Origin: a virus | DNA length: 29,069 bases | Virus record (IMG/VR): IMGVR_UViG_3300026194_000281 | Strand: one strand, 5' to 3' | Shown here: in pieces, positions 461 to 24,073 of the stretch | Layout: each line of letters opens with the position of its first letter | Numbering within the stretch: position 1 is the stretch's first letter | The notes under the pieces: model-generated | Database searches by the model: none | What the model saw: the letters and a program-made list of their open reading frames with translations, nothing else | Told to the model about the DNA's origin: nothing | Translations under genes and position numbers: made by a program

Positions 461-865
461 ATGGGAGAAATACCCGGCGACGTAAAAACCGCCCTTGGGC
501 GCCTCTATGTACTCTGCTCCGTCACCACCGACCCCGCCACCCTGCTCCGGCTCACCCGGGCCCTGATGAGCAGCGTCCGTGCCTGCCAGGCGAAGTTACA
601 CGAATCCATAGACGAAGGCACAAGAAACATTCCCGAATGGGAAACCTACCGCAACAAGATCGACACGGCGACCGTAGCATACGCCTCATCAGCAGACGCC
701 TGGGCAACCGTCATGATCACCTGTGCCGACATAGCCGATTACTTCTACGCACTCTGTTTGCTCGACGACCTGATCGAGATCGAGGCGAGCGACTTCGACC
801 TGACAACCTACTTCACCCCGAGAAATACCCCCCCGGAGGCAGGAGATGGCAGCAGAAGCCCCTGA
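461..865 (+). CDS. Hypothetical alpha-helical protein, coupled to the ATPase (allele A)
   Basis: Preceded by a TATA box; overlaps the ATPase start; homologous to 24228-24650 (84/115 residues identical by manual count). Confidence 0.8.
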   Translation: MGEIPGDVKTALGRLYVLCSVTTDPATLLRLTRALMSSVRACQAKLHESIDEGTRNIPEWETYRNKIDTATVAYASSADAWATVMITCADIADYFYALCLLDDLIEIEASDFDLTTYFTPRNTPPEAGDGSRSP

Positions 866-1919
866 AATCTCCGAAGTAACGAAGCGGACAGTCCCAATAT
901 CCGGAGCCCTAGCCGCCGTATCCCCCGAGATCGGTCGGAGCCTCTTCTACGAGGTAACCTGCCATGACGACGGCGTTGCCGCGATGGGCGGGATCTCAGC
1001 CGCCCTGGTGGCTCTCCCCGGCGGCGGGAAAAGCACCCTCCTGATGCAGCTTGCCCAGCTCGTGAACCACGTCAACGGGCACGCCGCAAAACTCGATGTA
1101 ATCAACCTCAAAAACCAGCACGTACCTGAAACCGTCATCTGGCGCGGACTTGAATACGATCACTGGGCCTGCTTCATCCAGGAATACTGGATGAGATCCT
1201 TCCCAAAACACGCGAATCCAAAACCCATACGGCTCCACATGCACCACCGAGATCGCCTCACCTTCTACCTAGATTTTGAGAAAAAGCCGTATCAACTCAT
1301 GCTCTCAGGAGACGACATTAAGTTTTACAACGGCCCCGACGAGTTATATGCCAACCTCCTCCCGGGCGGGATCAATGTCGTCTATGAACCCCAGGAGTAT
1401 TATCTAACGTCAAAAACCCTCCAACGGATTATGGCATCCCGCCTCAAGGCAACGAAATACGAGGATCAGGAGGACATCCGAGCCCCCTCGTTCATGTGGT
1501 GGTACGAATTCATTGAGACCCTCTCCCGCATCAAAAAACGCGGCGAATACTATACTCTGATCATCGACGAGGCCGCCCGTCTCTTTCCATTCGGGGCGCA
1601 GGGAGACCACTGGCACATGATCGGCTGGCTCGTCGAGACCCTCATCCATCTGCGAAAAAAGAACATCTCGACGTTCTTTGCCATCCACGGCCTTGACCTG
1701 ATAGATCCCCGGGTGGCAAAACGGATACAGTATTTCATCTGGCTCCCCGGCTCCCTCCCGGGAACTCGCAACAACATGGTTACTGCCTCCCTCGTCGGCC
1801 GGCTCCCGCTTGGCTGGGGCATCATCGAACAACCTCGGCGCCGGTTCGGTCGGTTCCGGTTCGGCCGCATCCCCCGGCAGCCCCCGGTCGTGCAGGCAGT
1901 CGGCCTCTCAGGAATATAG
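846..1919 (+). CDS. P-loop ATPase, FtsK/HerA/Zot-like, putative genome packaging or morphogenesis ATPase (allele A)
   Basis: Walker A ALPGGGKST, Walker B LIIDEA, then LRKKNISTFFAIH and DPRVAKRIQYFIWL; lies directly upstream of the capsid-like gene. Confidence 0.8.
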   Translation: MAAEAPEISEVTKRTVPISGALAAVSPEIGRSLFYEVTCHDDGVAAMGGISAALVALPGGGKSTLLMQLAQLVNHVNGHAAKLDVINLKNQHVPETVIWRGLEYDHWACFIQEYWMRSFPKHANPKPIRLHMHHRDRLTFYLDFEKKPYQLMLSGDDIKFYNGPDELYANLLPGGINVVYEPQEYYLTSKTLQRIMASRLKATKYEDQEDIRAPSFMWWYEFIETLSRIKKRGEYYTLIIDEAARLFPFGAQGDHWHMIGWLVETLIHLRKKNISTFFAIHGLDLIDPRVAKRIQYFIWLPGSLPGTRNNMVTASLVGRLPLGWGIIEQPRRRFGRFRFGRIPRQPPVVQAVGLSGI

Positions 1920-1950
1920 ACTTCCTCAAAACTATATAGAAAACAACTAC

Positions 1951-1979
1951 TTTTATATACCACTATAGCCCTATATATT
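1951..1979 (+). promoter_or_regulatory. AT-rich promoter of the capsid-like operon
   Basis: TTTTATATA (1951-1959) and TATATATT (1972-1979) in an AT-rich gap within GC-rich DNA, upstream of ATG 1994; conserved in copy 2. Confidence 0.6.
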
Positions 1980-1993
1980 TTTGGAGAAAACCT

Positions 1994-2344
1994 ATGGGAA
2001 AACACCTCGATTTTGCACGTGAGTGCTGGATCACCCTCCACACCGCCGGCGTGGGGGCCGTAAAGCGCCTCTATCAGGCCCGGTGCCTCAACGAGGATGC
2101 CAACGTCAACGCGGTTCTCGGCTTCATCATCGTCGCCGCCGTGCTCTTCATCGGTATCCCGGTGCTCGCCGCGATCTCCGCCGCGACCCCGGCGCTCAAT
2201 GAAACCGACCCCCTCTACGCCACGCAGCAGGCGCTGCAGACCACCACGAGTTCTGGCTACGGGCTGCTCGTCGTCACCCTGATCATCATCGCCATGGGTG
2301 CCGTCATCGGCGGCCTGATGATGTTCAACGCCCGGCGCGGATGA
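1994..2344 (+). CDS. Putative major capsid protein, spindle-virus VP1-like hydrophobic hairpin with N-terminal propeptide
   Basis: ~35-aa leader, then EDANVNAVLGFIIVAAVLFIGIPVL (helix 1), a loop with an N-E-T sequon, and a second hydrophobic helix. The spacing of N...LG...PV matches my recollection of mature SSV1 VP1. Confidence 0.65.
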   Translation: MGKHLDFARECWITLHTAGVGAVKRLYQARCLNEDANVNAVLGFIIVAAVLFIGIPVLAAISAATPALNETDPLYATQQALQTTTSSGYGLLVVTLIIIAMGAVIGGLMMFNARRG

Positions 2345-2381
2345 GGAGACCGGAGGAAACATCCCGTTTTCCGATCTTCTC

Positions 2382-2873
2382 ATGACGTCGAACCTCCGGG
2401 GGCGGGCCCTCCCCGCCCTCGTTCTATCCTCCCTCCTGTTCCCCGCGGCCTCTGCCGCCAACGTCACCGTCGCTGATCCTGTGCAGGTCCTCCCGGCAGC
2501 CCAAACCTACCTCCCCGTCGAGATCTGGACGCTCCTCTTCGCCCTCACCTGGGTCTGTCTCGGGCTCTCCCTCTGGCCCGGCATCGAGGGCCGGGACATG
2601 TGGGCCGGTCTCGCCGCCCTCCTCGCCGCAGCCGTCGCGTGGCTCTCTGGCTACATCAGTTTCAACAGCATCCATCCGATCCTCCTCACCGACGGCGACA
2701 TCCTCATCCAGCCCGTGCAGTGCCTCATCCAGCCGCCCTACCTGGGCCTGCTCATGATCGGCGTCTTCCTCCTCGCCGTAGTCAACGCCTTCCGGGTCGT
2801 CTGGCTCATCTACATCCGCCCGATCCGCGACCTCCGGCTCGCCGATCAGGGATACGACATAGGAGACCGATAA
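2382..2873 (+). CDS. Membrane protein with signal peptide and ~3 TM segments
   Basis: Signal-like LVLSSLLFPAASA, N-V-T sequon, three hydrophobic stretches; in operon context. Confidence 0.75.
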   Translation: MTSNLRGRALPALVLSSLLFPAASAANVTVADPVQVLPAAQTYLPVEIWTLLFALTWVCLGLSLWPGIEGRDMWAGLAALLAAAVAWLSGYISFNSIHPILLTDGDILIQPVQCLIQPPYLGLLMIGVFLLAVVNAFRVVWLIYIRPIRDLRLADQGYDIGDR

Positions 2874-2875
2874 CA

Positions 2876-3352: not shown

Positions 3353-3354
3353 CC

Positions 3355-4056
3355 ATGTCAGAAGTAATCGTAGCTGCAACGGAAATGCCGGGATATATCC
3401 TCGGCCTCCCCTGGTTCATCTGGGCGTTTGTCGCCCTCGGGGTCATCATCCTGATCTCCAACGCCCTCTGGGTCTGGTACTGGTGGACCATGGGGCCGGT
3501 CGGCGCCTACTGGAAAGCGGTGCGCAAGAACGAGACCCTCGGCATCCTGCTCACGAAGGGCGGCAAGCTCCGCTTCGTCGCCACCGAATACGTCGCCGGC
3601 GTCATGCGGTCGCTTGACCTCAAGATGTCCTGGATGATCCGCAGCCCTGACGCCTGGCAGCTCGGCACCGTCCCCTCGAAGCTCCTCATCGACCTCTGGG
3701 GCATCGGCGCGGACCCCCGGCTCCTCGTCGCCGTAAAGACCGCGATCGGGACCTGGAACGAAGAGCACCCCGATAACCAGATCGAGACCTACAAAGACCT
3801 CTACGACAAGGTCAAGCGCAAAGAGATCGCCGACCCGATCCTCATCCCGGCCGTCGCCGAAGTCCCCATCTACGAAATAGAGCGGTACCTCCCACATGTC
3901 GGCGCCGGCGACTTTGAAGGACATATCGCCGTCCGGGTCGCGGAAGAAGTGGACGACTTGAAGGGCAAAGAATGGCCGGCCTGGATGAAGGCGTTTATCA
4001 TGATCGAGATGGCCGTCATCGCATTCGGCGGGATCATCTATCTCCTGGGGAGCTGA
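3355..4056 (+). CDS. Membrane protein with N- and C-terminal TM helices
   Basis: GGAGG upstream, translationally coupled; hydrophobic segments at both ends. Confidence 0.8.
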   Translation: MSEVIVAATEMPGYILGLPWFIWAFVALGVIILISNALWVWYWWTMGPVGAYWKAVRKNETLGILLTKGGKLRFVATEYVAGVMRSLDLKMSWMIRSPDAWQLGTVPSKLLIDLWGIGADPRLLVAVKTAIGTWNEEHPDNQIETYKDLYDKVKRKEIADPILIPAVAEVPIYEIERYLPHVGAGDFEGHIAVRVAEEVDDLKGKEWPAWMKAFIMIEMAVIAFGGIIYLLGS

Positions 4057-4058
4057 CC

Positions 4059-6461
4059 ATGAATTTCGGCAGCGCTCCATCCCGGGTCCAACAGCTCAGG
4101 GAGGCCATGGCCGCCCGCCCGCCGGCCCCGCAACAGCAGGCCCGCGCCGGCCTCCTCCCGCAACAGCAGCCGGCCCCGACCGCCCCGGCCGCCCCGGCTG
4201 CATCCGCTCCCTCCTCATCCCCACTCGCAAATCTGGAGCGCAAGGTGCTCGCAGGGAGAGATCCGCGCCGGATCGGCACCCCGCTCGACTCCCCTGTAGC
4301 CCGAGTCATCGGCGGCCTGATGAGAGACGGGGTCGTCACCCCGTGGGACACCGAGACCAAATACAACGAGCACGCTGCCGCCTTCACCGAATACCAGCAA
4401 ATCCAGCAGAAACACGCCCCCCACATCCAGGGCGGCGTCTTCGTCGTCAACACCCCCCAGGACCAGGCCAAATACCAGGAGCTGCAGCGGGCGGCCACCC
4501 GCGTCGAGACCACCGGCCAGGCGTTCGAGCAGACCCGAGACCGGGAACTCTTCGGCATCTCCCGGCGCGTCGCCGACCTCAACAAAGGCGCCGCCGACTT
4601 CCTCAACCTCCCGGCCGTCACACCACGAGCAGAAACGGTGCATCGGGAGCGGGTAGCGCCCCACATCGGCCCCATGTTATCTCTGATGAACAAGGGCGGC
4701 CCCATTCCCGCGCTCGCTCGCGCCGCCGTCCCCGGTTACCGCCGGGCGGAATCCGATTTCTTCGCAGGCATCGGCGCCGGCGGCTATGAGCGGTTCCGGG
4801 TCGAACCTCTCACGGCGGCAGGATCCGTGGCGGTCGGGTTCCTCGGCGGCGCCGCAATGAAGGGCGCAACCCTCCTCCCGAAGGTCGGTCCCGTCGTCGT
4901 CGCAAAAGGCCCCACCATCGCAAAAGGCGTCGAAGCCCTCTACGTGGGCTCTGTCGGCGTCAGGACCGCCGGCGCTGGCCCCGACTACTTCGAGATGGGC
5001 CGAGAGTTCGGCGGCATCCTGACCACCGAGGCGATCCCGATGTATGGAGGGGTGAAGGCGTTTACCACCCTATCCCCGAGGGTCGGGGCAGGTGTTGCCC
5101 GGGCAAAGGACGCCTACCTCTCCCACAAGATCCGGGACGCCCCCGCCGCCCAAGTGAAAGCAGGCGGTCACTATCCCGACAACGAGATGATCCTTGAAGG
5201 TCTCCGGATGCAGGAGAGCCGGAGCCCCTTTGTCTCTGCCCGCTCCCTCTCCCGCAGCCGCCCCGGGAAGGCCGGCACCTTTGTCGAGGTCGGCCCCGGT
5301 CGCTACGTCGAGAAAGGCGGTCTTGACACCTACCTCCGGAGATTTGAGGTCGAGGCTGCCCACTGGCGCCGCCCCATCCCTCCCGAGTTCGTCGCCCGAG
5401 AAGACATCCTCGATGCTCCAGCCCACTGGCGCACCCCCGAGTTCGGCGGCCAGGTCGGGAGACAGGACCCCGTCCACGGCTGGCCCGAGCGAAGGATCGC
5501 CGGCGGTCACTATCCCGACAACGAGATGATCCTTGAAGGTCTCCGGATGCAGGAGAGCCGGAGCCCCTTTGTCTCTGCCCGCTCCCTCTCCCGCAGCCGC
5601 CCCGGGAAGGCCGGCACCTTTGTCGAGGTCGGCCCCGGTCGCTACGTCGAGAAAGGCGGTCTTGACACCTACCTCCGGAGATTTGAGGTCGAGGCTGCCC
5701 ACTGGCGCCGCCCCATCCCTCCCGAGTTCGTCGCCCGAGAAGACATCCTCGATGCTCCAGCCCACTGGCGCACCCCGGAGTTCGGCGGCCCCCCGGCCCC
5801 TATAACGGTAACGAAGATGTATGCCGGCATCCCGATCCGCATCAGCCGTCAGGGGCTCAGGGTCGGCAGATCTACCTATTCCCGCTCCGGACAACCCCTC
5901 AGGATCCGCCCGCCCCGTGCCGACCTGACCATGGCCGACGCCACGAAGACCCGGTTCCTCCTCCCGCTCGCATCAGGGACCGGGGAGACCCTCGCATCCG
6001 GCGAGACCATCCTCTCCCGCCTCGAACCCACGATCGCATCCCGGGCACAGAGCGCCACGCTCACCGCCTCCGGCCTACGCGACATCCTCGCCACCCGGCA
6101 GGACATCGACACATCAGAACTCACCAAATCTTCACTGACCCTGGACTCCTCTCTCATCCCTGCATCAGCCCTCCGCTCCGCCCAGGCCCAAGACTCCCTC
6201 CTGCTCACCACCTCCCGCCTCACCTCCCGGCAGCGGCAGCGTTCCGACACCATCCCCCGGCCCCGGCTCCGGGAAACCACCGTCGGCCTCCCGCGCCTGC
6301 GGCCGAAACTGGCCCCGCTCCCCAAGATCCCCCGAACCCCGATGGTCTTCGGGCTCCCGGAGCGGACCCCGCCGAAAAAGAAGCGCAAGAAAAAAGGCAA
6401 AAAGAAGGAGTTTGATGAGTTCCTGACCCTCCCCGACCTCTCCCGCCTCTGGAGGTTCTAA
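4059..6461 (+). CDS. Large Ala/Arg/Pro-rich putative internal virion or scaffold protein with a 96-aa internal duplication and a basic C-terminus
   Basis: ATG 4059 follows the upstream stop (TGACCATG); 800 codons open; ends PKKKRKKKGKKKEFDEFLTLPDL. Confidence 0.7.
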   Translation: MNFGSAPSRVQQLREAMAARPPAPQQQARAGLLPQQQPAPTAPAAPAASAPSSSPLANLERKVLAGRDPRRIGTPLDSPVARVIGGLMRDGVVTPWDTETKYNEHAAAFTEYQQIQQKHAPHIQGGVFVVNTPQDQAKYQELQRAATRVETTGQAFEQTRDRELFGISRRVADLNKGAADFLNLPAVTPRAETVHRERVAPHIGPMLSLMNKGGPIPALARAAVPGYRRAESDFFAGIGAGGYERFRVEPLTAAGSVAVGFLGGAAMKGATLLPKVGPVVVAKGPTIAKGVEALYVGSVGVRTAGAGPDYFEMGREFGGILTTEAIPMYGGVKAFTTLSPRVGAGVARAKDAYLSHKIRDAPAAQVKAGGHYPDNEMILEGLRMQESRSPFVSARSLSRSRPGKAGTFVEVGPGRYVEKGGLDTYLRRFEVEAAHWRRPIPPEFVAREDILDAPAHWRTPEFGGQVGRQDPVHGWPERRIAGGHYPDNEMILEGLRMQESRSPFVSARSLSRSRPGKAGTFVEVGPGRYVEKGGLDTYLRRFEVEAAHWRRPIPPEFVAREDILDAPAHWRTPEFGGPPAPITVTKMYAGIPIRISRQGLRVGRSTYSRSGQPLRIRPPRADLTMADATKTRFLLPLASGTGETLASGETILSRLEPTIASRAQSATLTASGLRDILATRQDIDTSELTKSSLTLDSSLIPASALRSAQAQDSLLLTTSRLTSRQRQRSDTIPRPRLRETTVGLPRLRPKLAPLPKIPRTPMVFGLPERTPPKKKRKKKGKKKEFDEFLTLPDLSRLWRF
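5163..5790 (+). repeat. 289-bp in-frame tandem duplication (5163-5451 and 5502-5790; period 339 bp)
   Basis: The copies differ by one synonymous base that I could find (ccc/ccg); 50-bp spacer. Confidence 0.95.
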
Positions 6462-6464: not shown

Positions 6465-6695
6465 ATGGCAGACGACCACATCACCGTATACTCGGCAGAC
6501 GAGGTAACCCAGATGACCGCCCAGGCCGCCTACATGAGCCGCGTCGCCACCGTCCTTCTCATGGTGCGCGACGAGCTCATCAAATCCGGCGCGGCCCCCG
6601 TCATCCTCGACACGATCGACGACATCATGACCGATTACGGGCTCATCCAGCCCAAACCGGAAGGAGGCGAAGATGCCACTCCTGCCCCCGCTTAA
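6465..6695 (+). CDS. Hypothetical protein (76 aa)
   Basis: GGAGG upstream; coupled to neighbouring genes. Confidence 0.7.
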   Translation: MADDHITVYSADEVTQMTAQAAYMSRVATVLLMVRDELIKSGAAPVILDTIDDIMTDYGLIQPKPEGGEDATPAPA

Positions 6696-6972
6696 GAACG
6701 ACGAAGGCAGCGCCGGCGTCCTCGCCTACTTCGGGATCTCCGTCTTCGCCGGTCTCGCCATCTACATGCTCCTCGGCCCCGCGTTCGACCTCATCTTCGG
6801 ACTCGCCTCAGACCCCGGCCTGCTCGCCCTCGCCCCCGTATCAGAGGAGCGCATCAACACCCTCAACATCATCAAACTCGCCATCGCCGCCGTGCCGTTC
6901 GTCGCCATCTTCCTCCCGAACGCCTACTATGCCATCATCACCAGCCTGCGCCAGGAAGGAGGCGGTATCTAA
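6673..6972 (+). CDS. Two-TM hairpin protein, putative minor capsid protein (MCP paralogue-like)
   Basis: KNDEG leader, helix 1 ending LLGP, helix 2 containing AVPFV; GGAGG upstream. Confidence 0.65.
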   Translation: MPLLPPLKNDEGSAGVLAYFGISVFAGLAIYMLLGPAFDLIFGLASDPGLLALAPVSEERINTLNIIKLAIAAVPFVAIFLPNAYYAIITSLRQEGGGI

Positions 6973-7250
6973 TGAACGGCGACGGCAGCCCCTCCGTCCT
7001 CGGGGCCATCCTCTACCTGCTCTTCACGCTCCTCACCCTTGCCGCGATCGTCGTCTGCGTCGGCCCCCTCTGGGACTGGCTCGCGGTCTGGCTCCTCACT
7101 CAGGACAGCCCGCTCGTCTCGACCGTCATGCCGCTCTTCAAGTGGCTCTGGCTGATCATCGCGCTCTCGGTCGTGGCGGCGTTCGCATACGTCTACCTCG
7201 TGGTGATTCGGAAAATCAGATACAACCGGCTGATGGGGGGATTGGAGTGA
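6972..7250 (+). CDS. Two-TM hairpin protein, putative minor capsid protein
   Basis: MNGDG leader, helix 1 ending VGP, helix 2 containing MPLF, basic C-terminus; TAATG overlap with the upstream gene. Confidence 0.65.
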   Translation: MNGDGSPSVLGAILYLLFTLLTLAAIVVCVGPLWDWLAVWLLTQDSPLVSTVMPLFKWLWLIIALSVVAAFAYVYLVVIRKIRYNRLMGGLE

Positions 7251-7708
7251 CCGAATATCACACGGCGGAACGAACCGCGACCACACCCCTGCACGTCTCA
7301 ACCACCCCGCACCTCGCCTACCTCCTGGTGCTGCTCGCCCTCCTCGCCGCCGACATCGCAACAACCGTCTGGTTCACCGGGCTCGGCCTGCCGGATCTCA
7401 ACCCCCACATCGCCCCCATCGCTGGCTCGGTCGCGGCGCAGGTCGCGTATAAAGCCCCGTTCGCGCTGTTGCTGGTCGGCAGCACCGCCCTCCTCGCGAC
7501 CGCCTGCGACCGGCTCCGGTCCGGCGCCGGGAAATACCCGTGGCTCGCCGTGGCCGGCATCTACGCGGTCCCGGTCGCCTGGAATCTCGTCGTGATCGCG
7601 GGGCACACGGGCTTCCACGTCGTCCCTGCGGTCGTCTACGCCCCGGTTGCTGTCGTCTGCGCCGTAGGGGTCTGGCGTGCCGCCCACCCTCGCCCGGAGG
7701 CACTAACT
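7247..7708 (+). CDS. DUF5658-like membrane protein (no in-frame stop; reads through into the adhesin)
   Basis: GTG start in a GTGA overlap; motif AADIATT...GLGLPDLNP...YK; paralogue at 14225-14527. The end coordinate is nominal. Confidence 0.55.
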
Positions 7709-7795
7709 ATGCCCGCGAACCACCCTAACCCCCGGCCGGCGGGGCCTCCCTCGACCTCCCCGCCCATAGCCTCTCCCCGCCCAGGAGGCGCTAAC

Positions 7796-10429
7796 ATGCC
7801 CGGCCCCCGTCGCCCCGCCCCCCTGCGCCCCCTGACGCTGCTAGCCATCTTACTCCTTATGACATGCGTAGTAGGCCCGGCGGCATCGGCAGAAATACTT
7901 ATAGATACGGAATATAGTGATTATTTTGCGAAAGTTGCAACCGTGACTGGTTCAGGCTCACCAGTATATACCGCTCCTGCTAACGGCATTATAATGAGTA
8001 CGCCGTTATCCTCTCCAGAATTTAATTCTATGTTTGCACAGATACCGGTGGCGGGGTTGGTAACAAACTATGACAGTTTACCGACTACCGGGCAAGCAAA
8101 TGTAAAATGGCATAAAAGTAGTCAGAGTGGCACTACCGGGGCGTTTTACATGTCTGGTACGTATGGGTATTTTAAATATACTGCTGGAGGGGCTAATTAT
8201 CTACAGATATGGGCGGAATTCGACGACCCTGTTAGTAAATTAACTGGTCCGACATATCTAAAATGCGTTTTAGATTCGGGCGAGTCTATTGTATGGCCAA
8301 AAATTAGGATGGTCGAAGGACCGTATAATTACGGCCCTCAACCTCTTTACGACGGTCTGGTTACTGATACATCTGGAATAAAGGCTACATTTGCAACTTC
8401 GCGCCTTGATGGTGGTAATTATTTGTTTTGTCTTGGCGGGGCTGGTGTTACGGTTCATCCCGTTTTATCAGGGACGTGGAAAAACGGGTTACGAATAGAG
8501 ACCCTCTCCGGTAATGTCCCCCGGGTGCAAATCGATATTACCAAAAATTACGACGGATATTTAGGGACCTCTGACCACTATGTGATGTTTGGGGAAACCG
8601 TATATAGCGCTATTGGTGGAACGTCGGACGCACAATACATCATTCCAGAGTCCGAATACCCAATTTCGGTCAGTATATATAACGCCCAAAATGATAAATG
8701 GTATAACTCGACGTACGGAGAGGCAGCCCCCGGAGAAGACGCCCCCGTCACCGTCTACGTCCAAAACAGTCAGACCGGCGCCCTCCTTGCCGACGCCAAC
8801 CTCAGCATCCTCGCGGCCGCCGGCGGCACCGAAACCGAGATCGTCAACGCCACCCTCCCCGGCGGCACCGGCACCTACAGCCTGGAGAAAGCGGACTACC
8901 TCAAATACCACGCATCCGCCACCGCCGACGGCTACACCCTCCTCTCCCCGATCCTCTTCGGCGTCCCGGAGAACGGTACAACGATCGTCCTCTGGATGGC
9001 TCCCGACGCCCCGCCCGACGTCCCCACCGAGCCCGAAAAATCCATGCTCTACGGCTACGTCCAGACCCAGGGCAGCCAGCAGCCGATCGCCGCCGCGACC
9101 GTCTCCCTCGACGGCTACGGCAGCACAACCACGTCGTCGACCGGCTTCTACCTCTTCAACAACATCACGCCCGGCGGCCCCTACACCCTCTCCGCCTCCG
9201 CCCCGCTCCACGATGCCCTCAGCGAACCCGTCACCGTAGATAGTGCCCCGACCCCCCATAACCTCGCCCTCAAAGGCCACTTCATGCTGACCGTCACCAT
9301 CAAGGACGGCGACGACCTCACAAACCTCCACAACTCGACGATCTCCCTCAGCGACGGGCAGGAGAGCACCCAGAACCCCGCGACGTTCACCGCCGACTAC
9401 GGCCCCTACACCATCACCGCAACCGCCGGCGGCTACTACCCGCAGACCCAATCCGCATACCTCGACAAGCCCGGCACCACCACCGCAACGGTCCTCCTAA
9501 CCGCCAAACCTGAACCTGTCCCCCCGCCGGAAATGCCCAACTACCCGCCGCACAACGTCAGGTTCCTCTGCATCGACGAATATAACCGCCCTCTCCAGAA
9601 CGTCACCCTCCGCGCCGTCTACCAGGAAAGCACCAACCCGGTCGACTGGTTTACCAGCTGGCTCGGCCTCTCCCCAAGCGTCAACATCAACAGCACGACT
9701 CTCGAAGGCACCACCGGTCTCGATGGCAGCGTAATCTTCCTCATGGTCGAATCCGTCCAGTACCGCATGACCGTCACGGCGCCAGCTCCGCTCAACATGA
9801 CCAAGACCTTTGACCTCTACCCGAAAGAAGACGAGATCACGATCCGGTTCGTCACCTCCGCCCGCCCCGACCTCTCCACGATGCCGACCTACGACCTCAC
9901 CGCGACCGAGACCGACCCCTCCAGCGTCCAGCTCGCCCTCAGCTACCACGACACCACCAACGCCACCACCTCCCTCACATTCAACGTCTACGATCACGCC
10001 ACCGGGGACGTCATCAACACCCAGACCTTCGACGCCTCCAGCTTCCCCGGCACCGTCTCCCCGACCTACGACGTCACCAACACCAACGGCGCCATGTATC
10101 GCTTCGGGTTCACCGCCCAGAACTCCGCCCACGGCGAGATATCGCAGTATAAAGGCATCACCCTCAAAGGAGACAACCTCCTCGTAGACCTCGGCTTCGA
10201 GGACCGCACCCTCTACCAGTGGCTTGCCGTGCTCCTCCTCTTCCTCTTCGCCGGCGCCTTCAGCGGCACCAACGTCAAGCAGGGCGCGATCCTCGTCCCG
10301 CTCTTCGGCGGCGGCCTCTTCTGGTTCATCGGCTGGCTCCCGATCACCCTCGGCGCCACCATCTCCGCGATCGGGTTCCTCGGCGTCCTCGTCTACATGC
10401 GCAAGAGCGAATGGAAGGTGAGAGCATGA
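7796..10429 (+). CDS. Large secreted, membrane-anchored adhesin or tail-like glycoprotein: variable N-domain, carboxypeptidase-regulatory-like beta-sandwich repeats, C-terminal TM helices
   Basis: GGAGG then ATG 7796; signal peptide LTLLAILLLMTCVVGPAASA; repeats such as LYGYVQ...PIAAATVSLDG...TTTSSTGFYLFNNITPGGPYTLSASAP; many NxT/S sequons; three hydrophobic C-terminal segments. Confidence 0.8.
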   Translation: MPGPRRPAPLRPLTLLAILLLMTCVVGPAASAEILIDTEYSDYFAKVATVTGSGSPVYTAPANGIIMSTPLSSPEFNSMFAQIPVAGLVTNYDSLPTTGQANVKWHKSSQSGTTGAFYMSGTYGYFKYTAGGANYLQIWAEFDDPVSKLTGPTYLKCVLDSGESIVWPKIRMVEGPYNYGPQPLYDGLVTDTSGIKATFATSRLDGGNYLFCLGGAGVTVHPVLSGTWKNGLRIETLSGNVPRVQIDITKNYDGYLGTSDHYVMFGETVYSAIGGTSDAQYIIPESEYPISVSIYNAQNDKWYNSTYGEAAPGEDAPVTVYVQNSQTGALLADANLSILAAAGGTETEIVNATLPGGTGTYSLEKADYLKYHASATADGYTLLSPILFGVPENGTTIVLWMAPDAPPDVPTEPEKSMLYGYVQTQGSQQPIAAATVSLDGYGSTTTSSTGFYLFNNITPGGPYTLSASAPLHDALSEPVTVDSAPTPHNLALKGHFMLTVTIKDGDDLTNLHNSTISLSDGQESTQNPATFTADYGPYTITATAGGYYPQTQSAYLDKPGTTTATVLLTAKPEPVPPPEMPNYPPHNVRFLCIDEYNRPLQNVTLRAVYQESTNPVDWFTSWLGLSPSVNINSTTLEGTTGLDGSVIFLMVESVQYRMTVTAPAPLNMTKTFDLYPKEDEITIRFVTSARPDLSTMPTYDLTATETDPSSVQLALSYHDTTNATTSLTFNVYDHATGDVINTQTFDASSFPGTVSPTYDVTNTNGAMYRFGFTAQNSAHGEISQYKGITLKGDNLLVDLGFEDRTLYQWLAVLLLFLFAGAFSGTNVKQGAILVPLFGGGLFWFIGWLPITLGATISAIGFLGVLVYMRKSEWKVRA

Positions 10430-13593: not shown

Positions 13594-13697
13594 AGTATAG
13601 AGAACTATGTGTAGAAGTGGAGAACTATATAGGTCAAAAGACCGATATAGAGAACGACGGAGAAACCAGCAGAAACGGAAACGAAAACAGAAGGAGT

Positions 13698-14775: not shown

Positions 14776-14791
14776 CGCCCTATTGACAATC

Positions 14792-15034
14792 ATGGACGCA
14801 CACGCGGAGGAATACTCCTGTCCAAAACAGTTGTCCGTCAAGGTCCCCCCCCACCACCAGGGCATAATCACCAAGGCGGTGCGCTCGGGCCGGTACGGGA
14901 ACGCCTCTGAGTTTTTCAGAGAAAGTATCGAGGTTAACGGGGTGCGGCGCGGCTTCACACCAGCGGACGTCTCACCCGCCCCGGAAAAGGATCACACGTG
15001 CCCGCGAGGCGAACAATGTCGGGTAGAACAGTAG
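14792..15034 (+). CDS. Ribbon-helix-helix (CopG/Arc/MetJ-type) DNA-binding protein
   Basis: QLSVKVP...IITKAVRSGRYGNASEFFRESIE is a typical RHH pattern. Confidence 0.75.
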   Translation: MDAHAEEYSCPKQLSVKVPPHHQGIITKAVRSGRYGNASEFFRESIEVNGVRRGFTPADVSPAPEKDHTCPRGEQCRVEQ

Positions 15035-17515: not shown

Positions 17516-19372
17516 ATGGCGTCTCTCAACCTACAGGTATCCCCATCCAGCGGCGGCTATCCCCTAGCGCCAGCTCGAGCCAACCCCTTCCTCTTCTCCG
17601 TAGGGGCGGAGCGCATCGACCTCTATCCGATCCTCCGCGACGGTGCAAATATGCATAGCATCAGAGCCCGTTTAGCGCCCAAAACAGGCGACAATCTCCG
17701 GGGCTACCCGGCGATCTATCACCGCCTCCTCCGGTTCCTGAAACGCCTGGAAAAGGACGGATATCTCGTATCTGAGAAGGGCGTGCTCGCTCTCGGCATG
17801 GACGAAAAACCATGTTACTGGTGGCGGCCTACCCATGCGGGCCTATACTTGATAGGGCAGGTGCAAAATTCAAACCCGTGCAAATTACCCCGGGACCCTG
17901 ACACCCTCGAGGGTGACACCTTGCAACGTCAAGCGGCCCGGGGAGCCTTCCGGACCCGCTACCCCTACGACACCGACGAGCCCGAACCGGAGATCCCCCG
18001 GTGGGTCCGGTTCCCGAAGCGCTCCAGCCTCACCCGATTAAAGGCCGCGTCCCTCCTCTGCCAGGTTCGGAATGACTTCCTGCCCAGCTACAAGCAACGC
18101 CTCTTCGAGCGCCTCGACACGGGCCGGGTAGATCCGAAGACCGGCAAACCGATCACGGTAGTAAACCCTCTTCTGAAGGCCAAACTCGCGGACATCCGCG
18201 AGTATTACGACTACTACCTCGAAGAGATCGCAGACAAGACGATTGTCCTCGTCAACAAGGACGCCGAGACCCCGGGCGGCGAGGACTTCAAGACGCTGCC
18301 CTACCGGACCCGCTTCAACGACTTCAGCCGGTCCGCCCGAGCGCTCGACAAGTATGAAGCTGCCTGGGTCGAGGCTGAAAAGTTCTTCTCCAACGCCGTT
18401 TTCCTCACCCTGACGACCGATCCGAAAAAGCACCCCTCCCTCTGGCGGGCAAACCGGCACATGAGCGTTGCCTGGAACCGTTACACTGCCCTGCTCACCA
18501 AGCGAGCCCGGGACGGATTTATCGACGACCTCCGGACCACCCGCGAAAAAATCTTGAAAACACAGGGATACTCAGACGAGGAGATCGCAACCCTCACCCA
18601 TTCCGACGAGTTCCGGGAGTACATCGAACAAGAACTCCAGGGCCGCTCATTCCGGCCTAAATACGTTGCCGTGAACGAGTTTATGGAGAACGGCCTGCTC
18701 CACATGCACATCATCGTTTTCGGCACCTCCTGGATCGCAAAGCGCGAACAGATCTCCGAGGACTGGGACCGATGCGGGCAGGGCAAGATCGTCAAGGCGC
18801 TCGCCGTGCATCGAAACCCGAAAACAGGCATCTGGGAGTGGGCCGGCAGCCGGCCCGACGACGCCAAATCCGGCGAATCGCCCCGAGACTACCTGAAAAA
18901 ATACCTGAACAAAGCGATCTACGACCGCAAAGGGTTCGAGTTGTACTGGGCGCTCAACAAAAATTTTATGAGCACCTCTCGCCGGTTCGACCCTGCCCGG
19001 ATGACCATAGAGGAGGAGGTAGACCGCTGGTATCAGAGAATCAAAGAAAAACTCCTCAAAGAGCAGAATCCGTCATACTGGCGCTATGCGTTTTGTTCTC
19101 CTGCTGGAGAGATCCCGACCTGGATGGACTGGTATGACCGGAAAAACCGGCGCACCATCGGCCCGGCCGTACTGGTCGAGAACCTGACCGGCACTGCCAG
19201 CGCCCCGCCGCTCCTGACGGCGAACGAACGCCGCATCGAGCATCTCCGGCGCAAGGGGCTGCTCACGTTTAGAACCGCCCTTGAGCTACGGCGCTCGACA
19301 ATTGCCGAGCGCCAAGAGCCCGAGAAAAACCCCGAAACCGGCCGGCCATGGAGCCTGGCCGACTTTATGTGA
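17516..19372 (+). CDS. rep: Rolling-circle replication initiator, HUH endonuclease with two catalytic Tyr (archaeal plasmid/pleolipovirus-type Rep)
   Basis: Motif I FLTLTT, motif II LHMHIIVFG, motif III YLKKYLNK; N-terminal wHTH-like segment; no SF3 helicase motifs seen. Confidence 0.88.
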   Translation: MASLNLQVSPSSGGYPLAPARANPFLFSVGAERIDLYPILRDGANMHSIRARLAPKTGDNLRGYPAIYHRLLRFLKRLEKDGYLVSEKGVLALGMDEKPCYWWRPTHAGLYLIGQVQNSNPCKLPRDPDTLEGDTLQRQAARGAFRTRYPYDTDEPEPEIPRWVRFPKRSSLTRLKAASLLCQVRNDFLPSYKQRLFERLDTGRVDPKTGKPITVVNPLLKAKLADIREYYDYYLEEIADKTIVLVNKDAETPGGEDFKTLPYRTRFNDFSRSARALDKYEAAWVEAEKFFSNAVFLTLTTDPKKHPSLWRANRHMSVAWNRYTALLTKRARDGFIDDLRTTREKILKTQGYSDEEIATLTHSDEFREYIEQELQGRSFRPKYVAVNEFMENGLLHMHIIVFGTSWIAKREQISEDWDRCGQGKIVKALAVHRNPKTGIWEWAGSRPDDAKSGESPRDYLKKYLNKAIYDRKGFELYWALNKNFMSTSRRFDPARMTIEEEVDRWYQRIKEKLLKEQNPSYWRYAFCSPAGEIPTWMDWYDRKNRRTIGPAVLVENLTGTASAPPLLTANERRIEHLRRKGLLTFRTALELRRSTIAERQEPEKNPETGRPWSLADFM

Positions 19373-20563: not shown

Positions 20564-20779
20564 ATGGTTCTGACACTACGCACACGTATCCGGGCGGTGT
20601 TCCTCACCTACCCGGACACCACCGCCCCCCGGTTCCACTTCCCATCCCGGGAGCCAGATCCGGATGCCTGGCTGAAAGAACTGAAGGAGAAAATTGCCGC
20701 CGATATCCGGCGGGAAGAGGAGGCGGCACGGAGACATATGGAGTTTCTGTGCAGCCTTTCACATTTGGTAGAGGACTGA
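20564..20779 (+). CDS. Hypothetical protein, first of the GGTAGAGG-terminated microgenes
   Basis: Ends LVED* within the motif; start at ATG 20564 is inferred. Confidence 0.55.
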   Translation: MVLTLRTRIRAVFLTYPDTTAPRFHFPSREPDPDAWLKELKEKIAADIRREEEAARRHMEFLCSLSHLVED

Positions 20780-20780
20780 T

Positions 20781-21002
20781 ATGATGTCGAGAAAAACGGT
20801 TTACATCTGCGACGGCTGCGGGCAAGAGCATCATAGCGGAGCGCCCCGGTTGCGCCTCCTGATGAACCGCTGCGATGCGGAGCTCACCTTTGTTGTGGAG
20901 GGGAAGAGGATCGAGGCGATCGATGGAGAACTACATTTCTGCGGCCCTGATTGCTTGAAGGCTTACTTTGAGGGCTTGATTGAGAAGATAGAGGAGAGAT
21001 AG
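20781..21002 (+). CDS. Small Zn-binding protein
   Basis: YICDGCG...HFCGPDC; ends IEER*. Confidence 0.7.
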   Translation: MMSRKTVYICDGCGQEHHSGAPRLRLLMNRCDAELTFVVEGKRIEAIDGELHFCGPDCLKAYFEGLIEKIEER

Positions 21003-21230
21003 ATGGACTGGAAACCTTTATTTATGGGTCTTGGCTTTGCCGCTGGCGGCTCTGCGCTGGTCTTCTATCTCATAATCCGTGAGATCGTTGATCAGTCATG
21101 GGGGTGGTACCCCGCAGAGGCGGTCAGCGCATTGTTCTGGGCGCTCGTCTCGAGCCTGCTGATCTGCCTGCTGGCGCTCATCATGGCAACCCGCGTCGAA
21201 AAACGCCCTGAGATGGTAGAGGAACGATAG
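21003..21230 (+). CDS. Small two-TM protein
   Basis: Two hydrophobic helices; ends MVEER*. Confidence 0.7.
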   Translation: MDWKPLFMGLGFAAGGSALVFYLIIREIVDQSWGWYPAEAVSALFWALVSSLLICLLALIMATRVEKRPEMVEER

Positions 21231-21231
21231 C

Positions 21232-21423
21232 ATGGGAAACGACTGTTGGTATTATCGGGCTCAATATGCAGGCATGACGAAGGTCTGTATGCGGAAGAGC
21301 ATCGTGGAGTGTGGCCGGATCAGGCGGTTCGGCCTCTGTCCAAAACCGCCGGACTCGGAAGCCTGGCGGCGGTGCGGGTTTGCCCTCGGGCAGCATGAGA
21401 TCCCGCTCATGGTAGAGGAGTAG
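21232..21423 (+). CDS. Small Cys-rich protein
   Basis: Five Cys; ends MVEE*. Confidence 0.6.
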   Translation: MGNDCWYYRAQYAGMTKVCMRKSIVECGRIRRFGLCPKPPDSEAWRRCGFALGQHEIPLMVEE

Positions 21424-21426
21424 AAG

Positions 21427-21570
21427 ATGGACACAATAACACTCAGGCACCTCCCGGGCTCCTGTTGCCCGGAAAAGGATTGCAGCGTCGGATCGTGGGA
21501 TGGTAAGCACTGCCGGTCATGCGGTGCGGACTGCTCAAAATGCCCGCTTAACGGGCTGGTAGAGGTATGA
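21427..21570 (+). CDS. Cys-rich microprotein (47 aa)
   Basis: SCCPEKDC...CRSCGADCSKC; ends LVEV*; translated manually. Confidence 0.55.
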   Translation: MDTITLRHLPGSCCPEKDCSVGSWDGKHCRSCGADCSKCPLNGLVEV

Positions 21571-21573
21571 AGG

Positions 21574-21771
21574 GTGAAACCAGTATTCCGCGTCGAATCC
21601 GCGAATGAGGAGAACATCCGGGGCGGTTGGTATCTGCTGGCTGACAGCCTGGCAGCGGCCCGCGAGGTCTACCCCGCACACCTGTTCCCGTCGATGACCT
21701 TCATTGAGGTCGGAAAGGGGCTATGTGTCGAATGCAACCGCAGGGCGGTTGATGCCCTGGTAGAGGAGTGA
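21574..21771 (+). CDS. Microprotein with CxxC
   Basis: GTG start; ends ALVEE*. Confidence 0.6.
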   Translation: MKPVFRVESANEENIRGGWYLLADSLAAAREVYPAHLFPSMTFIEVGKGLCVECNRRAVDALVEE

Positions 21772-21777
21772 AAGAAG

Positions 21778-21918
21778 ATGGCTAAATGTAAGCATCAATC
21801 CACGGATGGCAAACGGTGCCTTCGCCCGGGCGCACCGATGGAACTGTGTTGGGTCTACTACGAATATCCTGCCCGGCGGGAGCAGTGCAAGCACTTTGAG
21901 AGCGGGGTAGAGGGGTGA
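21778..21918 (+). CDS. Cys-rich microprotein (46 aa)
   Basis: MAKCKHQ...RC...LC...CKHF; ends GVEG*; translated manually. Confidence 0.55.
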   Translation: MAKCKHQSTDGKRCLRPGAPMELCWVYYEYPARREQCKHFESGVEG

Positions 21919-21924
21919 AAGAAA

Positions 21925-22068
21925 ATGTGGAGAGTAACTATTGTAGATGAGGCAACAGGGGGGGTCCTGGACAGTGCCAAGATCGACCCGGACAGACAAC
22001 CAGACAAAAGAAAGCACGTTGAGATACAGATCAAGCGGAACGGTCAGATTGTCGGGAAAGGCTGGTAG
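21925..22068 (+). CDS. Microprotein (47 aa)
   Basis: MWRVTIVDEATGGVLDS...GKGW*; the stop lies inside the motif; translated manually. Confidence 0.55.
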   Translation: MWRVTIVDEATGGVLDSAKIDPDRQPDKRKHVEIQIKRNGQIVGKGW

Positions 22069-22081
22069 AGGAGTGAGAGGT

Positions 22082-22240
22082 ATGACAAAGAAATGCACCG
22101 GGAACGACTGCGAATGGATAGTTCGCGACGATCCCGCCGCCGACGATTATGACCCGCGTGGCTACTGCCGACTGCATCACATCTATGTAGATGTAGGCAT
22201 GCGATGCCCGGGAAGAGTAGAAAACAGGAAGGAGGAATGA
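22082..22240 (+). CDS. Cys-rich microprotein
   Basis: GAGG upstream of ATG 22082; CTGNDC...YCRLH...C. Confidence 0.55.
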   Translation: MTKKCTGNDCEWIVRDDPAADDYDPRGYCRLHHIYVDVGMRCPGRVENRKEE

Positions 22241-22243
22241 AAA

Positions 22244-22399
22244 ATGAGGCCATGTATTTACCAGGACGGAGCAACTTCGACTTGTAAGGCATTCGACGAC
22301 CCCGATGATGGAAGCCCAATGGTGATCACCGTCTCAAAGGGATGTTGTATCTATGAGTCGGGGTGCAGCTGCCACCAGGCAAAAGACCTAATCGGCTAG
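22244..22399 (+). CDS. Cys-rich microprotein (51 aa), last in the array
   Basis: GGAGG SD; CCIYESGCSCH; the stop abuts the hairpin; translated manually. Confidence 0.55.
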   Translation: MRPCIYQDGATSTCKAFDDPDDGSPMVITVSKGCCIYESGCSCHQAKDLIG

Positions 22400-22450
22400 A
22401 CCTATCACTCCTCCCCCGACGAGTGATAGGTCAGCCCTCTTTTCTTTATT
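22399..22450 (+). terminator. Perfect 12-bp stem-loop plus T-rich tail (terminator and/or recombination/origin site)
   Basis: GACCTATCACTC-(CTCCCCCGAC)-GAGTGATAGGTC at 22399-22432, then AGCCCTCTTTTCTTTATT; contains copy 2 of the 19-bp repeat (22403-22421). Confidence 0.65.
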
Positions 22451-22524
22451 ACACCATATAAACGGGAGTGGCCTATCAAAACGTCCCGGAAATTGCAACT
22501 ATCACAACCGCGAAAAACCGACAG

Positions 22525-22671
22525 TCAATCCCAACTCATCATCCGGCACGCAACACAGCACCATCCCACCGGCACCCAGGACCGCCGCCCCTCAACAACC
22601 GCCTGCACATAGGTCCGACTCATCGCGGACCCGCACACCTGACACCTCGGCGCTGGCTCTCTTCTGCTCAT
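22525..22671 (-). CDS. Small Zn-ribbon protein, divergent from int
   Basis: MSRREPAPRCQVCG...WCCVAC; TATATA lies ~28-33 nt upstream on the minus strand. Confidence 0.5.
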   Translation of the reverse strand: MSRREPAPRCQVCGSAMSRTYVQAVVEGRRSWVPVGWCCVACRMMSWD

Positions 22672-22825
22672 GCTATAGCATTTCGAGCGCACGCGGCATA
22701 TATACCTATCCGGGATATCCAACAAAGCACAGAGAACGAACCAAAACGGATATGAACAAAAGTAATGACGCTGAGGGGGAGAGTAGCCCAATATGTTCAT
22801 ATCTGATACTGACCTATAGCAGTGC

Positions 22826-24073
22826 ATGGGAGAGACCTATTTCCATCAACATGCCGCCCCGGGTTACTGGGAGGGGCAGGTATCGAGAGCGGAGAACAAC
22901 GGGAAGATCAGCCCCGGCGATGCTGCCCTGATCCGGCGGTTCGTCAACTATCGGCAGGGCGGCAAGGGCATCACCGCCTCCCGGGCCACGAAATTATCAC
23001 AGATCCTCATATCATGGAGGCAGGTGCTCACCCCTCCCTGGGAGGAGGTGACGATCGACGACCTCTTTGCCGCCCGGATGCGGCTCACCTCGATGACGAG
23101 CAGCCGAGGCGAGCCCTACGCGCAGAACACGATCGCCGACCACATCCAGATCCTAAAGTCATTTTTCAAGTGGATGATCTCCCGAAAGCTAACCTCGAAC
23201 CTCACGGCAGCCGAGCTCAGCGAACTCAAGGCACCCCCGAGAGACTACGAGACGACCGACCCCGGCGACCTCGTCACAGCCGACGAGCTCGCTGCTATGA
23301 TCCGGGCCTGCAAGACCCACCGGGACCGGGCGATCGTCGCCGTGACCTACGAGACCGGGGCACGGATAGGGGAGGTGGCCCGGCTTCGGTGGTCGGATAT
23401 ACTGTTCGATCGCTATGGAGTCCGCTGCACAATCAACGACACCAAGGAACGCAAGAAGCGGTATCCCCGGCTCATCAACAGCACGGCATACTTGGCGGCC
23501 TGGAGGAACGGATACTATGGGCCGGCTGCCGAGGGGGATGCATACGTCTTCATCTCCACGAAAAATCATCCTCTCCGGTACCGGGCCATATCGCAGGTGA
23601 TCGAGCGGGCGGCACAGCGGGCGGGCATTGAAAAGCGGATACACCCACATTTGTTCAGGAAAAGTAGGATTACCGAACTGGTCCGGAAGAACTATCAAGA
23701 GTCCGTCCTGAAAGAAACGTTCTGGGCGAACCCCGATACGTCGATGTTCCGCACCTATCTGAAACTATCAGAAAAGGACATCGACGACGAATTTTTGAGA
23801 AGGGCCGGGCTGAAGACAGAGAGCGAGATCGACGCCGACACCGACAAGCCCCGCCAGTGCATGTACTGCCTGGCAGTCAACCCTCCGGGATCCCAGTTCT
23901 GCCGCATGTGCACCCGGCCACTCACCACAGAGGCCCGCCAGACTCAGGGCGAGAAGGTCAACTCCCTCCTGACCCACATGGACCAGGATCCCCGCCTGGC
24001 CATCATCGAGCAGAAGTTCGAAGAGTTCCGCCAGTCCCTCATCGATAAGATGGACTCGTCGGGCAGAACCTGA
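22826..24073 (+). CDS. int: Tyrosine recombinase/integrase with C-terminal Zn-ribbon
   Basis: YETGARIGE (catalytic R), HPHLFRKSR (HxxR), FW..., MFRTY (catalytic Y); CMYC...FCRMC ribbon. Confidence 0.92.
   Translation: MGETYFHQHAAPGYWEGQVSRAENNGKISPGDAALIRRFVNYRQGGKGITASRATKLSQILISWRQVLTPPWEEVTIDDLFAARMRLTSMTSSRGEPYAQNTIADHIQILKSFFKWMISRKLTSNLTAAELSELKAPPRDYETTDPGDLVTADELAAMIRACKTHRDRAIVAVTYETGARIGEVARLRWSDILFDRYGVRCTINDTKERKKRYPRLINSTAYLAAWRNGYYGPAAEGDAYVFISTKNHPLRYRAISQVIERAAQRAGIEKRIHPHLFRKSRITELVRKNYQESVLKETFWANPDTSMFRTYLKLSEKDIDDEFLRRAGLKTESEIDADTDKPRQCMYCLAVNPPGSQFCRMCTRPLTTEARQTQGEKVNSLLTHMDQDPRLAIIEQKFEEFRQSLIDKMDSSGRT

Follow-up and report, generated by a model that had tools for sequence, protein, structure and literature searches.

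Gene content of the element

The IMG/VR virus record IMGVR_UViG_3300026194_000281, a stretch of 29,069 nucleotides (nt) referred to below as the window, was found to hold about 1.2 laps of a 23,780-bp unit, the list of its open reading frames (ORFs) recurring at an offset of 23,780. The unit encodes a P-loop ATPase followed by a small hairpin protein that is a candidate for the major capsid protein, together with membrane and surface proteins, a rolling-circle replication initiator of the HUH type (Rep) and a tyrosine integrase (Table 1). No terminase, portal, HK97 or jelly-roll family was matched in any Pfam, PHROG or NCBIfam scan, in agreement with a preliminary description of the sequence, which had recognised none of them. 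The results presented below point to a mobile element of Methanomicrobiales that is probably a virus.

Table 1. Features of the 29,069-nt window, in order of position (aa, amino acids; A and B, the two variants of the element)
Position	Strand	Feature	Basis or remark
2..301	+	3' remnant of integrase gene (last ~60 codons), variant A	Probable; 180-304 and 23952-24076 are 87% identical
461..865	+	134-aa helical protein (A copy)	Always directly upstream of the ATPase; homologues so placed in 20 related loci
846..1919	+	P-loop ATPase of the PAV1 ORF375 family, HerA/FtsK-superfamily fold (A copy)	PHROG, hhalign, AlphaFold2 (AF2) fold
1994..2344	+	Major capsid protein candidate, 116 aa	Leader ending NEDA, two hydrophobic helices, N-x-S/T sites in the turn
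2382..2873	+	163-aa polytopic membrane protein	Module member; homologues in 17 related loci, same order
3355..4056	+	233-aa membrane protein, N- and C-terminal transmembrane (TM) segments	Best-conserved module member after the ATPase
3972..6461	+	829-aa protein, internal tandem duplication, lysine-rich C-terminus	Large protein at the same position in all relatives
6465..7250	+	Three small membrane proteins (76, 99 and 92 aa)	Conserved in relatives
6929..10429	+	Large surface protein, CarboxypepD_reg and C-terminal TM anchors	PF13620 at 7.8e-16
10752..12527	+	Secreted protein, DUF2341, two PKD domains, dockerin/EF-hand-like tail	Pfam
12520..13593	+	357-aa protein, signal peptide and C-terminal TM segments	Conserved module member
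13617..14228	+	203-aa protein, Gly-rich repeats and basic tail	Conserved beside the module in relatives
14225..14527	+	DUF5658 membrane protein	PF18902 at 1.8e-9
14567..15034	+	Ribbon-helix-helix regulator	PF03693 at 2.4e-4 in the C-terminal part, just above cut-off
17516..19372	+	HUH rolling-circle replication initiator, two catalytic tyrosines (YLKKY)	PF23343 at 2.2e-8
20770..22400	+	Hypervariable micro-ORF block, units parted by GGTAGAGG motif	Repeat family D12; varies between samples
22394..22436	+	Stable DNA hairpin	dG -14.9 kcal/mol, z -7.07
22525..22827	-	100-aa Cys-rich protein	Upstream of the integrase; holds CRISPR protospacer 22629-22660; 81% nt identity in G210
22826..24073	+	Xer-like tyrosine integrase, C-terminal zinc ribbon and helical tail, variant B	PF00589 at 1.7e-25
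24207..25698	+	147-aa protein and 362-aa ATPase (B copies)	63-66% identical to the A copies
25730..29069	+	Shared structural module, second pass	Equals 1950-5289 at 97-100%

The ATPase and the capsid candidate

The 357-aa ATPase carries the Walker A motif GGGKST and the Walker B motif LIIDEA. No Pfam family was found for the product of 846-1919; it matched phrog_22963 at 7e-32, and ORF375 of the spindle-shaped virus PAV1 belongs to the same PHROG. Among 50,697 virus records (INPHARED, August 2025), PAV1 was the sole match, and the ATPase family aligned with PAV1 ORF375 in hhalign at 99.8% over 297 columns. An ABC-like relation was once suggested for this type of gene, which also occurs in a provirus of Methanococcus voltae A3 (PMC3543421). 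The AF2 model of the ATPase (pLDDT 81.5, pTM 0.85) resembled HerA (4d2i_B, Z 17.2, 230 aligned residues) and the packaging NTPase B204 of STIV2 (Z 16.2), followed by VirB4 (Z 14.4), TrwB (Z 13.8), the N-terminal domain of Zot (Z 11.1) and FtsK (Z 10.8), and Foldseek concurred with HerA at 5.4e-8. The FtsK/Zot-type assignment made earlier is correct at the level of the superfamily, with HerA and B204 as the better comparison. No similarity to PAV1 ORF137 was detected for the 134-aa family (hhalign 0.3%), and sequence searches of the PDB with the profiles of the capsid, ATPase and 134-aa families gave chance-level matches only.

The fold matches to VirB4 and TrwB would also suit a non-viral integrative plasmid or conjugative-type element, with a pilin-like hairpin, a HerA/VirB4-like transfer ATPase, a relaxase-like HUH protein and surface proteins that mediate contact. 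This explanation is considered unlikely. Additional domains like those of VirB4 and coupling proteins are missing from the 357-aa protein, and higher scores were obtained with HerA and the viral packaging NTPase.

A search of 1.84 billion representative proteins gave 39 homologues of the capsid candidate, with lengths of 90-150 aa in almost every case. In this family, a variable leader terminates in the acidic motif [ND]-E-[DE]-[AG], after which come a hydrophobic helix, a turn with abundant N-x-S/T sites, the motif T-T-x-S-G-Y-G-L and a second hydrophobic helix, and the AF2 model of the candidate was a two-helix hairpin (helices 3-64 and 75-115, pLDDT 81.8). The 'virion structural protein' family phrog_16261 was matched by 15 of 36 members; its source was not found in PAV1, His1, SSV1, HRPV-1 or TPV1, and the capsid ORF of NTT1 matched weakly. 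When the member P0016 was compared by tblastn with all virus records, the only matches were nine records of Nipumfusiviridae (Nitrosopumilaceae spindle-shaped virus). Consistent with this, the family aligned with the predicted capsid protein of NYM1 over the entire hairpin (hhalign 97.6%, E 2.7e-12, 78 columns). PF25665 (His1_capsid) was matched by two of the 36 members at 0.049, and a TPV1 membrane protein aligned at 64.8% over half its length. Judged by the alignment with NYM1, the product of 1994-2344 is a member of a family already proposed as spindle-virus capsid protein.

Conservation of the structural module

Relatives of the ATPase were collected by a word-indexed search, which gave 11, and by pattern scans, which gave 47 metagenomic and three genomic loci. 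A capsid-family gene lay directly downstream of the ATPase gene in 31 of 51 related loci, and the pair persisted at ATPase identities of 25-32% and GC contents of 31-62%, some loci having two or three tandem capsid paralogues. The full order of the module, comprising the genes for the 203-aa protein, the 134-aa protein, the ATPase, the capsid candidate, the 163-aa and 233-aa proteins, the large protein, the three small membrane proteins, the adhesins and the 357-aa protein, was retained in L002, L038, L043, L047, L049 and G023:C2.

A related integrase was found in ten loci, and the Rep of the window in none of the loci that share the structural module; because of this absence it looks like an exchangeable module. 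The picture that these loci suggest is one of a stable structural module with exchangeable replication genes, and the same pattern has been reported for PAV1-like viruses (PMC12934983).

In the distant relatives L061, L063 and L059 (31-35% GC), the ATPase gene is followed by capsid-family genes in tandem, two or three in number; L063, which is embedded in a 120-kb contig, might be a copy that has integrated into a low-GC host. Two short contigs with the ATPase-capsid pair, L011 and L012, belong to metagenome-assembled genomes (MAGs) labelled Patescibacteria and 'uncultured bacterium', labels that are probably binning errors for an archaeal virus.

Host and distribution

A CRISPR spacer (L095:1502-1533) matched 22629-22660 at 32 of 32 positions, and AAG, the usual type I-E motif, stands immediately 5' of the protospacer. 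The array (G121:C11:75274-78309; repeat GCGTTCCCCATGCACGTGGGGATGAACCG, 29-nt repeat, 32-nt spacers, at least 37 repeats) lies on a contig exceeding 498 kb in a Methanomicrobiales genome, and its repeat is one that we take to resemble I-E repeats. In addition, 133 nt of this genome are 79% identical to 19869-20003, and it may therefore carry a related element as well.

Further links to this host were obtained from the ATPase, which was present in 6 of 301 sampled Methanomicrobiales genomes, one relative being in a MAG titled Methanomicrobiales archaeon, and from stretches 76-91% identical to the window at the DNA level in three Methanomicrobiales MAGs. The element is thus very likely a mobile element of a Methanomicrobiales host, the exact spacer being the decisive evidence for this sequence-based assignment. 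A host of this kind had been proposed in the preliminary description, together with spacer matching as the means of finding it. The spacer is neutral with regard to the plasmid explanation, since viruses and plasmids alike are targeted by CRISPR.

The element was detected in 20 runs from 16 studies, with 73-93% of the sampled words per run. The positive studies, dated 2016-2025, were metagenomes of bioreactors, landfills, leachate, wastewater and digesters. On account of its occurrence in 16 independent studies and the CRISPR memory in the host, it is probably an ecologically relevant parasite of these methanogens.

Two variants of the element

A bin-wise comparison at the offset of 23,780 showed 97-100% identity between 1950-5289 and 25730-29069, whereas 1-1950 and 23781-25730 were only distantly similar, at ~70-88% identity where alignable. 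The laps therefore differ in the segment that holds the end of the integrase gene, the ~135-aa gene and the ATPase gene. The two forms, designated variants A and B, differ over a segment of ~3.5 kb that extends from the integrase, across the 134-aa protein, to the ATPase. In four different studies, public contigs bridged the integrase at 22826-24073 into the B segment, and a single 6.6-kb contig from one digester run spanned 22402-28972. In the run best holding the sequence, the depth was ~36 at the integrase and B segment and ~51 in the shared part. The bridging contigs and the difference in depth indicate that the two variants coexist.

The integrase goes with the second, B-type ATPase region and not with 461-1919. 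The coordinates 461-24073, which had been taken as one element, join an A-type ATPase to a B-type integrase, and are therefore a chimera of the two variants. In our interpretation, the unit is circular (or tandem) and its assembly has passed once through each variant; the repetition may alternatively stem from a true tandem insertion, and the coordinates would join the two types in that case as well.

The beginning of the window contains what appears to be the scar of a deletion. The 23 bp at 97-119 equal 22399-22421 at 22 of 23 positions, that is, the left arm and loop of the DNA hairpin at 22394-22436, and this copy runs directly into the last ~180 bases of an integrase-like gene. No likeness to the integrase was seen upstream of ~100 in comparisons within the window. 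From this arrangement, variant A appears to have lost most of its integrase, with the endpoint of the deletion in the hairpin loop, the left arm and loop being fused directly to the 3' remnant. Such an endpoint would be compatible with a site of nicking by the Rep or of recombination. The alternative that 2-301 is the end of a third element was dropped in favour of a truncated remnant, in view of the hairpin copy and the lack of any likeness upstream of ~100.

Replication and integration genes

The translation of the Rep gene contains motif 1 (FLTLT), motif 2 (HMHIIVF, of the form HxHxxxF) and motif 3 (YLKKYLNK, of the form YxxKY), and the protein matched PF23343 (the ORF2/G2P family) above the cut-off, phrog_12863 at 1.4e-20 and phrog_3419. 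The three motifs and the Pfam match confirm the two-tyrosine HUH Rep of the preliminary description. Rep-Arvir (PMC13107129) was considered as its identity and dropped, since the protein carries HUH motifs.

Among the 50,697 virus records, the Rep matched only ORF1 of the alphapleolipoviruses HRPV-1, -2 and -6 (26.7-28.4% identity over ~200-235 aa), with which it shares the HUH Rep family. This restricted match would be expected if the element were a pleomorphic, vesicle-type virus related to pleolipoviruses, its Rep being ancestral and its hairpin protein the counterpart of the internal membrane protein VP3. Other methanogens are known to harbour pleolipovirus-like proviruses (PMC10919331), and the pleolipovirus core likewise consists of membrane proteins, a spike-like protein and an ATPase. 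We regard such a relationship as somewhat less probable still than a plasmid. In hhalign, the ATPase family reached 0.3% with VP8 and the hairpin family 0.2% with VP3; no window ORF matched HRPV-1 VP4 by tblastn, and a tblastn comparison of all ORFs with HRPV-1 recovered the Rep alone, a gene that is found in none of the loci with the shared structural module. Unlike the alphapleolipoviruses, which infect haloarchaea, the element has a genome three times larger.

The match to PF23343, a family common to filamentous phages, also bears on the shape of a putative virion. A rod-shaped or filamentous particle could be built from the same helical hairpin subunit, either inovirus-like with a Zot-type assembly ATPase or bacilliform; the N-terminal domain of Zot is among the fold matches of the ATPase, and according to literature cited in PMC10866085, both rods and spindles are built from hairpin capsid proteins. 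Such a form is improbable, the least likely of the shapes considered. Zot scored well below HerA and B204, and a genome of 23.8 kb that encodes several large adhesins with TM anchors is in keeping with the known spindle viruses PAV1 (18 kb) and TPV1 (21.6 kb).

The tyrosine integrase, which had also been identified correctly in the preliminary description, matched PF00589 with 90.2 bits (cut-off 27.1), and its closest models were XerA, XerC and XerD, all matched below their equivalog cut-offs. Splitting of the gene by its own att site, as in SSV-type integrases, was not seen.

The DNA hairpin between the Rep and integrase genes is a candidate for the rolling-circle origin or a recombination site. 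Next to it, in the micro-ORF block 20770-22400, contigs of all four runs broke, skipped or diverged, and the summed contig depth ranged from 1140 up to 3882 at 21212-21817, compared with ~50-100 elsewhere. Because of this excess, the micro-ORF cassettes are taken to be present in many more contexts than this element.

Comparison with known archaeal viruses

With each of three groups the element has a single gene in common: the ATPase with PAV1, the capsid candidate with Nipumfusiviridae and the Rep with the alphapleolipoviruses. Like PAV1 and the other Thermococcales spindle viruses ('Osirisviridae'), it has an ORF375-type ATPase preceded by a ~135-aa protein, a small hairpin protein of capsid type, several small membrane proteins and a genome of ~20 kb that is circular in PAV1 and presumably so here, and its large TM-anchored adhesins of lectin/PKD type resemble ORF676/ORF678 (PMC3543421). 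An exchangeable replication locus, a rolling-circle endonuclease in one member and integrases in some are further common points (PMC12934983). However, only the ATPase was detectably homologous by tblastn, ORF121 was unmatched by the hairpin family, and the rest of the PAV1 core (ORF121, ORF676/678, ORF898 and ORF137), taken as the genes of PAV1 and not as the family's own list, was unmatched as well. The gene order also differs, the capsid gene here standing directly after the ATPase gene; the host of 'Osirisviridae' is a hyperthermophile, whereas that of the element is a mesophilic methanogen, and the Rep is of alphapleolipovirus type and not pRT1-like.

In Nipumfusiviridae (e.g., NYM1, BK067792), the hairpin capsid candidate belongs to the same family and likewise has a long turn prone to glycosylation, and the genomes also encode a P-loop ATPase of ~350 aa. 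A relation between the two ATPases is not established (hhalign 23%, P-loop only), and no other family hidden Markov model (HMM) matched NYM1. The genomes have been deposited as linear records of 27-38 kb; the family has been linked to ammonia oxidisers, no family B polymerase is reported for it, and its morphology is only predicted (PMC10866085).

Putative spindle viruses of methanogens have already been reported for Methanosarcina and Methanobacteriales (PMC9796341, PMC12451623). These Eurekaviridae (Methanosarcina spindle-shaped virus 1, record PQ167755) and digester contigs, compared here by their description, are likewise metagenomic; unlike the element, they are assigned to Methanosarcina or Methanobacteriales hosts, and one has a protein-primed polymerase (PMC9796341, PMC12451623).

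By these comparisons, the element appears to fall outside PAV1-like viruses, Nipumfusiviridae and Pleolipoviridae as each group is delimited. No described virus with more than one of the ATPase, capsid, Rep and integrase set was found in the collections searched, and as these did not include the 2023 methanogen-virus compendium, a prior description is possible.

Nature of the element

Taken together, the data are best explained by a genome of ~23.8 kb that belongs to a temperate or carrier-state virus of Methanomicrobiales, occurs in two variants and most likely forms a spindle-shaped particle, a reading that we favour with moderate confidence. Its parts differ in strength. The identities of the genes, the conserved module, the host and the two variants are shown by the data; the formation and shape of a virion, the cleavage of the leader, DNA packaging by the ATPase and the position of the origin are inferred. 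That the element is a virus and not a plasmid is quite probable, while the chance that its virion is spindle-shaped is a little better than even.

Several observations weigh against this reading. The 89-aa NYM1 ORF matched by the hairpin family is the capsid protein proposed by its authors, a prediction only (PMC10866085), and particles have yet to be seen for this group or for Nipumfusiviridae. A four-sequence profile of SSV1 VP1/VP3, His1 VP21 and PAV1 ORF121 reached only 16% with the capsid family in hhalign. Of the SSV-VP1-like hairpin named in the preliminary description, the two-helix hairpin is thus retained as an AF2 prediction and the direct likeness to SSV1 VP1 is weakened; the profile comparison suggested there led to NYM1, and neither to the SSV1, His1 and PAV1 capsid proteins nor to pleolipovirus VP3. 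Fold searches on helical hairpins are unspecific: the SMV1 capsid protein aligned with the hairpin model over 91 of 94 residues (Z 7.7), at rank 28 and tied with unrelated hairpins, and Foldseek with the same model returned nothing below E 0.26 in BFVD and the PDB. Three of the 36 members weakly matched the TrbC/VirB2 pilin family at ~1e-3, as a plasmid-borne pilin might.

Other points of this kind concern the remaining modules. ORF375-type ATPases have also been found in pTN2-type plasmids (PMC3543421), and a pattern scan of IMG/VR with the ATPase gave no relative. Integration is unproven because no att site or host junction was found, G023:C2, G198:C116 and G351:C166 being without host flanks and without a tRNA. 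A more distant integrated island (L027/L028) at ~953300-968000 of G014:C1, a 2.17-Mb Methanomicrobiales contig, encodes a related integrase together with a 622-aa protein, the ATPase and a protein of 1542 aa, and is without a capsid-family gene. This island may be a plasmid-like cousin of the element, by analogy with the relation of pTN2 plasmids to PAV1, and this echo keeps the plasmid explanation alive. Finally, PAV1-like spindle viruses are described in a 2026 preprint, one of them having a rolling-circle Rep and others having integrases (PMC12934983), and the combination of modules, regarded as unusual in the preliminary description, accordingly has a precedent in 'Osirisviridae'.

As for the plasmid, no other conjugation component was matched in Pfam, NCBIfam or PHROGs, the sole matches of the hairpin family among virus records were capsid candidates of spindle viruses, and the layout of the module mirrors that of PAV1. 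With the virus reading retained, the element probably represents a new lineage of family level, and a new mosaic of known modules rather than a new principle, because its parts are already known separately in other archaeal viruses. The new spindle-like lineage first suggested is therefore upheld in its PAV1-type ATPase, its hairpin of the Nipumfusiviridae family, its Rep and its integrase, and weakened in its link to SSV1 and in the unusual character of its mix.

Membrane, surface and regulatory proteins

The 233-aa protein was 53-58% identical to its counterparts in L002 and G023:C2 and was present in 14 loci, including contigs of 31-35% GC; an Atlas search matched unnamed viral clusters only. 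The 829-aa protein contains a 339-nt in-frame tandem duplication (5160-5451 and 5499-5790 are 99% identical), and its counterparts in L002 and L003 range from 1528 to 4013 aa. In a digester variant, small in-frame insertions were seen at 27959 and 27980, in the Ala/Pro-rich part.

Of the three small membrane proteins, those at 6673-6972 and 6972-7250 had been described as similar hairpins. Their topology is indeed shared; homology is not supported, the capsid-family HMM finding neither. The family of the 99-aa protein weakly matched SSV1 VP1 (E 0.019).

The TM-anchored adhesins of the preliminary description correspond to the products of 6929-10429 and 10752-12527. The true start of the former is probably near 7800, at a predicted signal peptide, and a protein of 42% identity is encoded in G023:C2. 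A second DUF5658 domain at 7259-7798 was considered and is unsupported by Pfam. An ORF of L047 matched both the DUF5658 protein and the N-terminal part of the 6929-10429 ORF, and the SSV1 gene SSV-1p18 bears the annotation 'DUF5658 family protein', which is also the family name of the product of 14225-14527. The product of 10752-12527 is likely the receptor-binding protein. In 328 of 401 Methanomicrobiales genomes, chromosomal genes with multiple repeats are ~70% identical at the nt level to its PKD repeats (window 11820-12290), and this resemblance suggests that the binding protein borrows or mimics domains of host surface proteins.

Proposed life cycle and implications

The gene set would be consistent with the following cycle. 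The Rep would nick an origin, possibly the hairpin at 22394-22436, and start rolling-circle copying of the circular genome, which the Xer-like integrase might be able to insert into the host chromosome. The 116-aa hairpin protein would lose its leader at NEDA, enter the membrane and assemble into the shell in the manner of SSV1 VP1. The HerA/FtsK-type ATPase, whose gene is immediately upstream of the capsid gene, would move DNA into the particle, and the surface proteins with PKD, DUF2341 and carboxypeptidase-regulatory-like domains would bind the host envelope.

More tentatively, the ATPase-hairpin pair may be the morphogenetic core conserved across a large and so far unrecognised assemblage of archaeal viruses that includes those of Thermococcales, ammonia oxidisers and methanogens, an idea that we think possible but doubtful. 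If it were true, many spindle-type viruses would fill their particles with a dedicated DNA translocase, and the present member, with its pleolipovirus-type Rep, might package single-stranded DNA.

Methanomicrobiales are key methane producers in digesters and landfills, and very few of their viruses are known, the tailed virus Blf4 being the sole isolate cited in the literature surveyed. The ATPase-capsid pair provides a practical marker for similar viruses and a testable idea of how particles are filled; since no relative was found in IMG/VR, it could reveal viruses that are missed by current virus-calling tools. The value of the element lies in its link to a host, its wide occurrence in methane-producing engineered systems and the handle that the ATPase-capsid pair offers for further searches.

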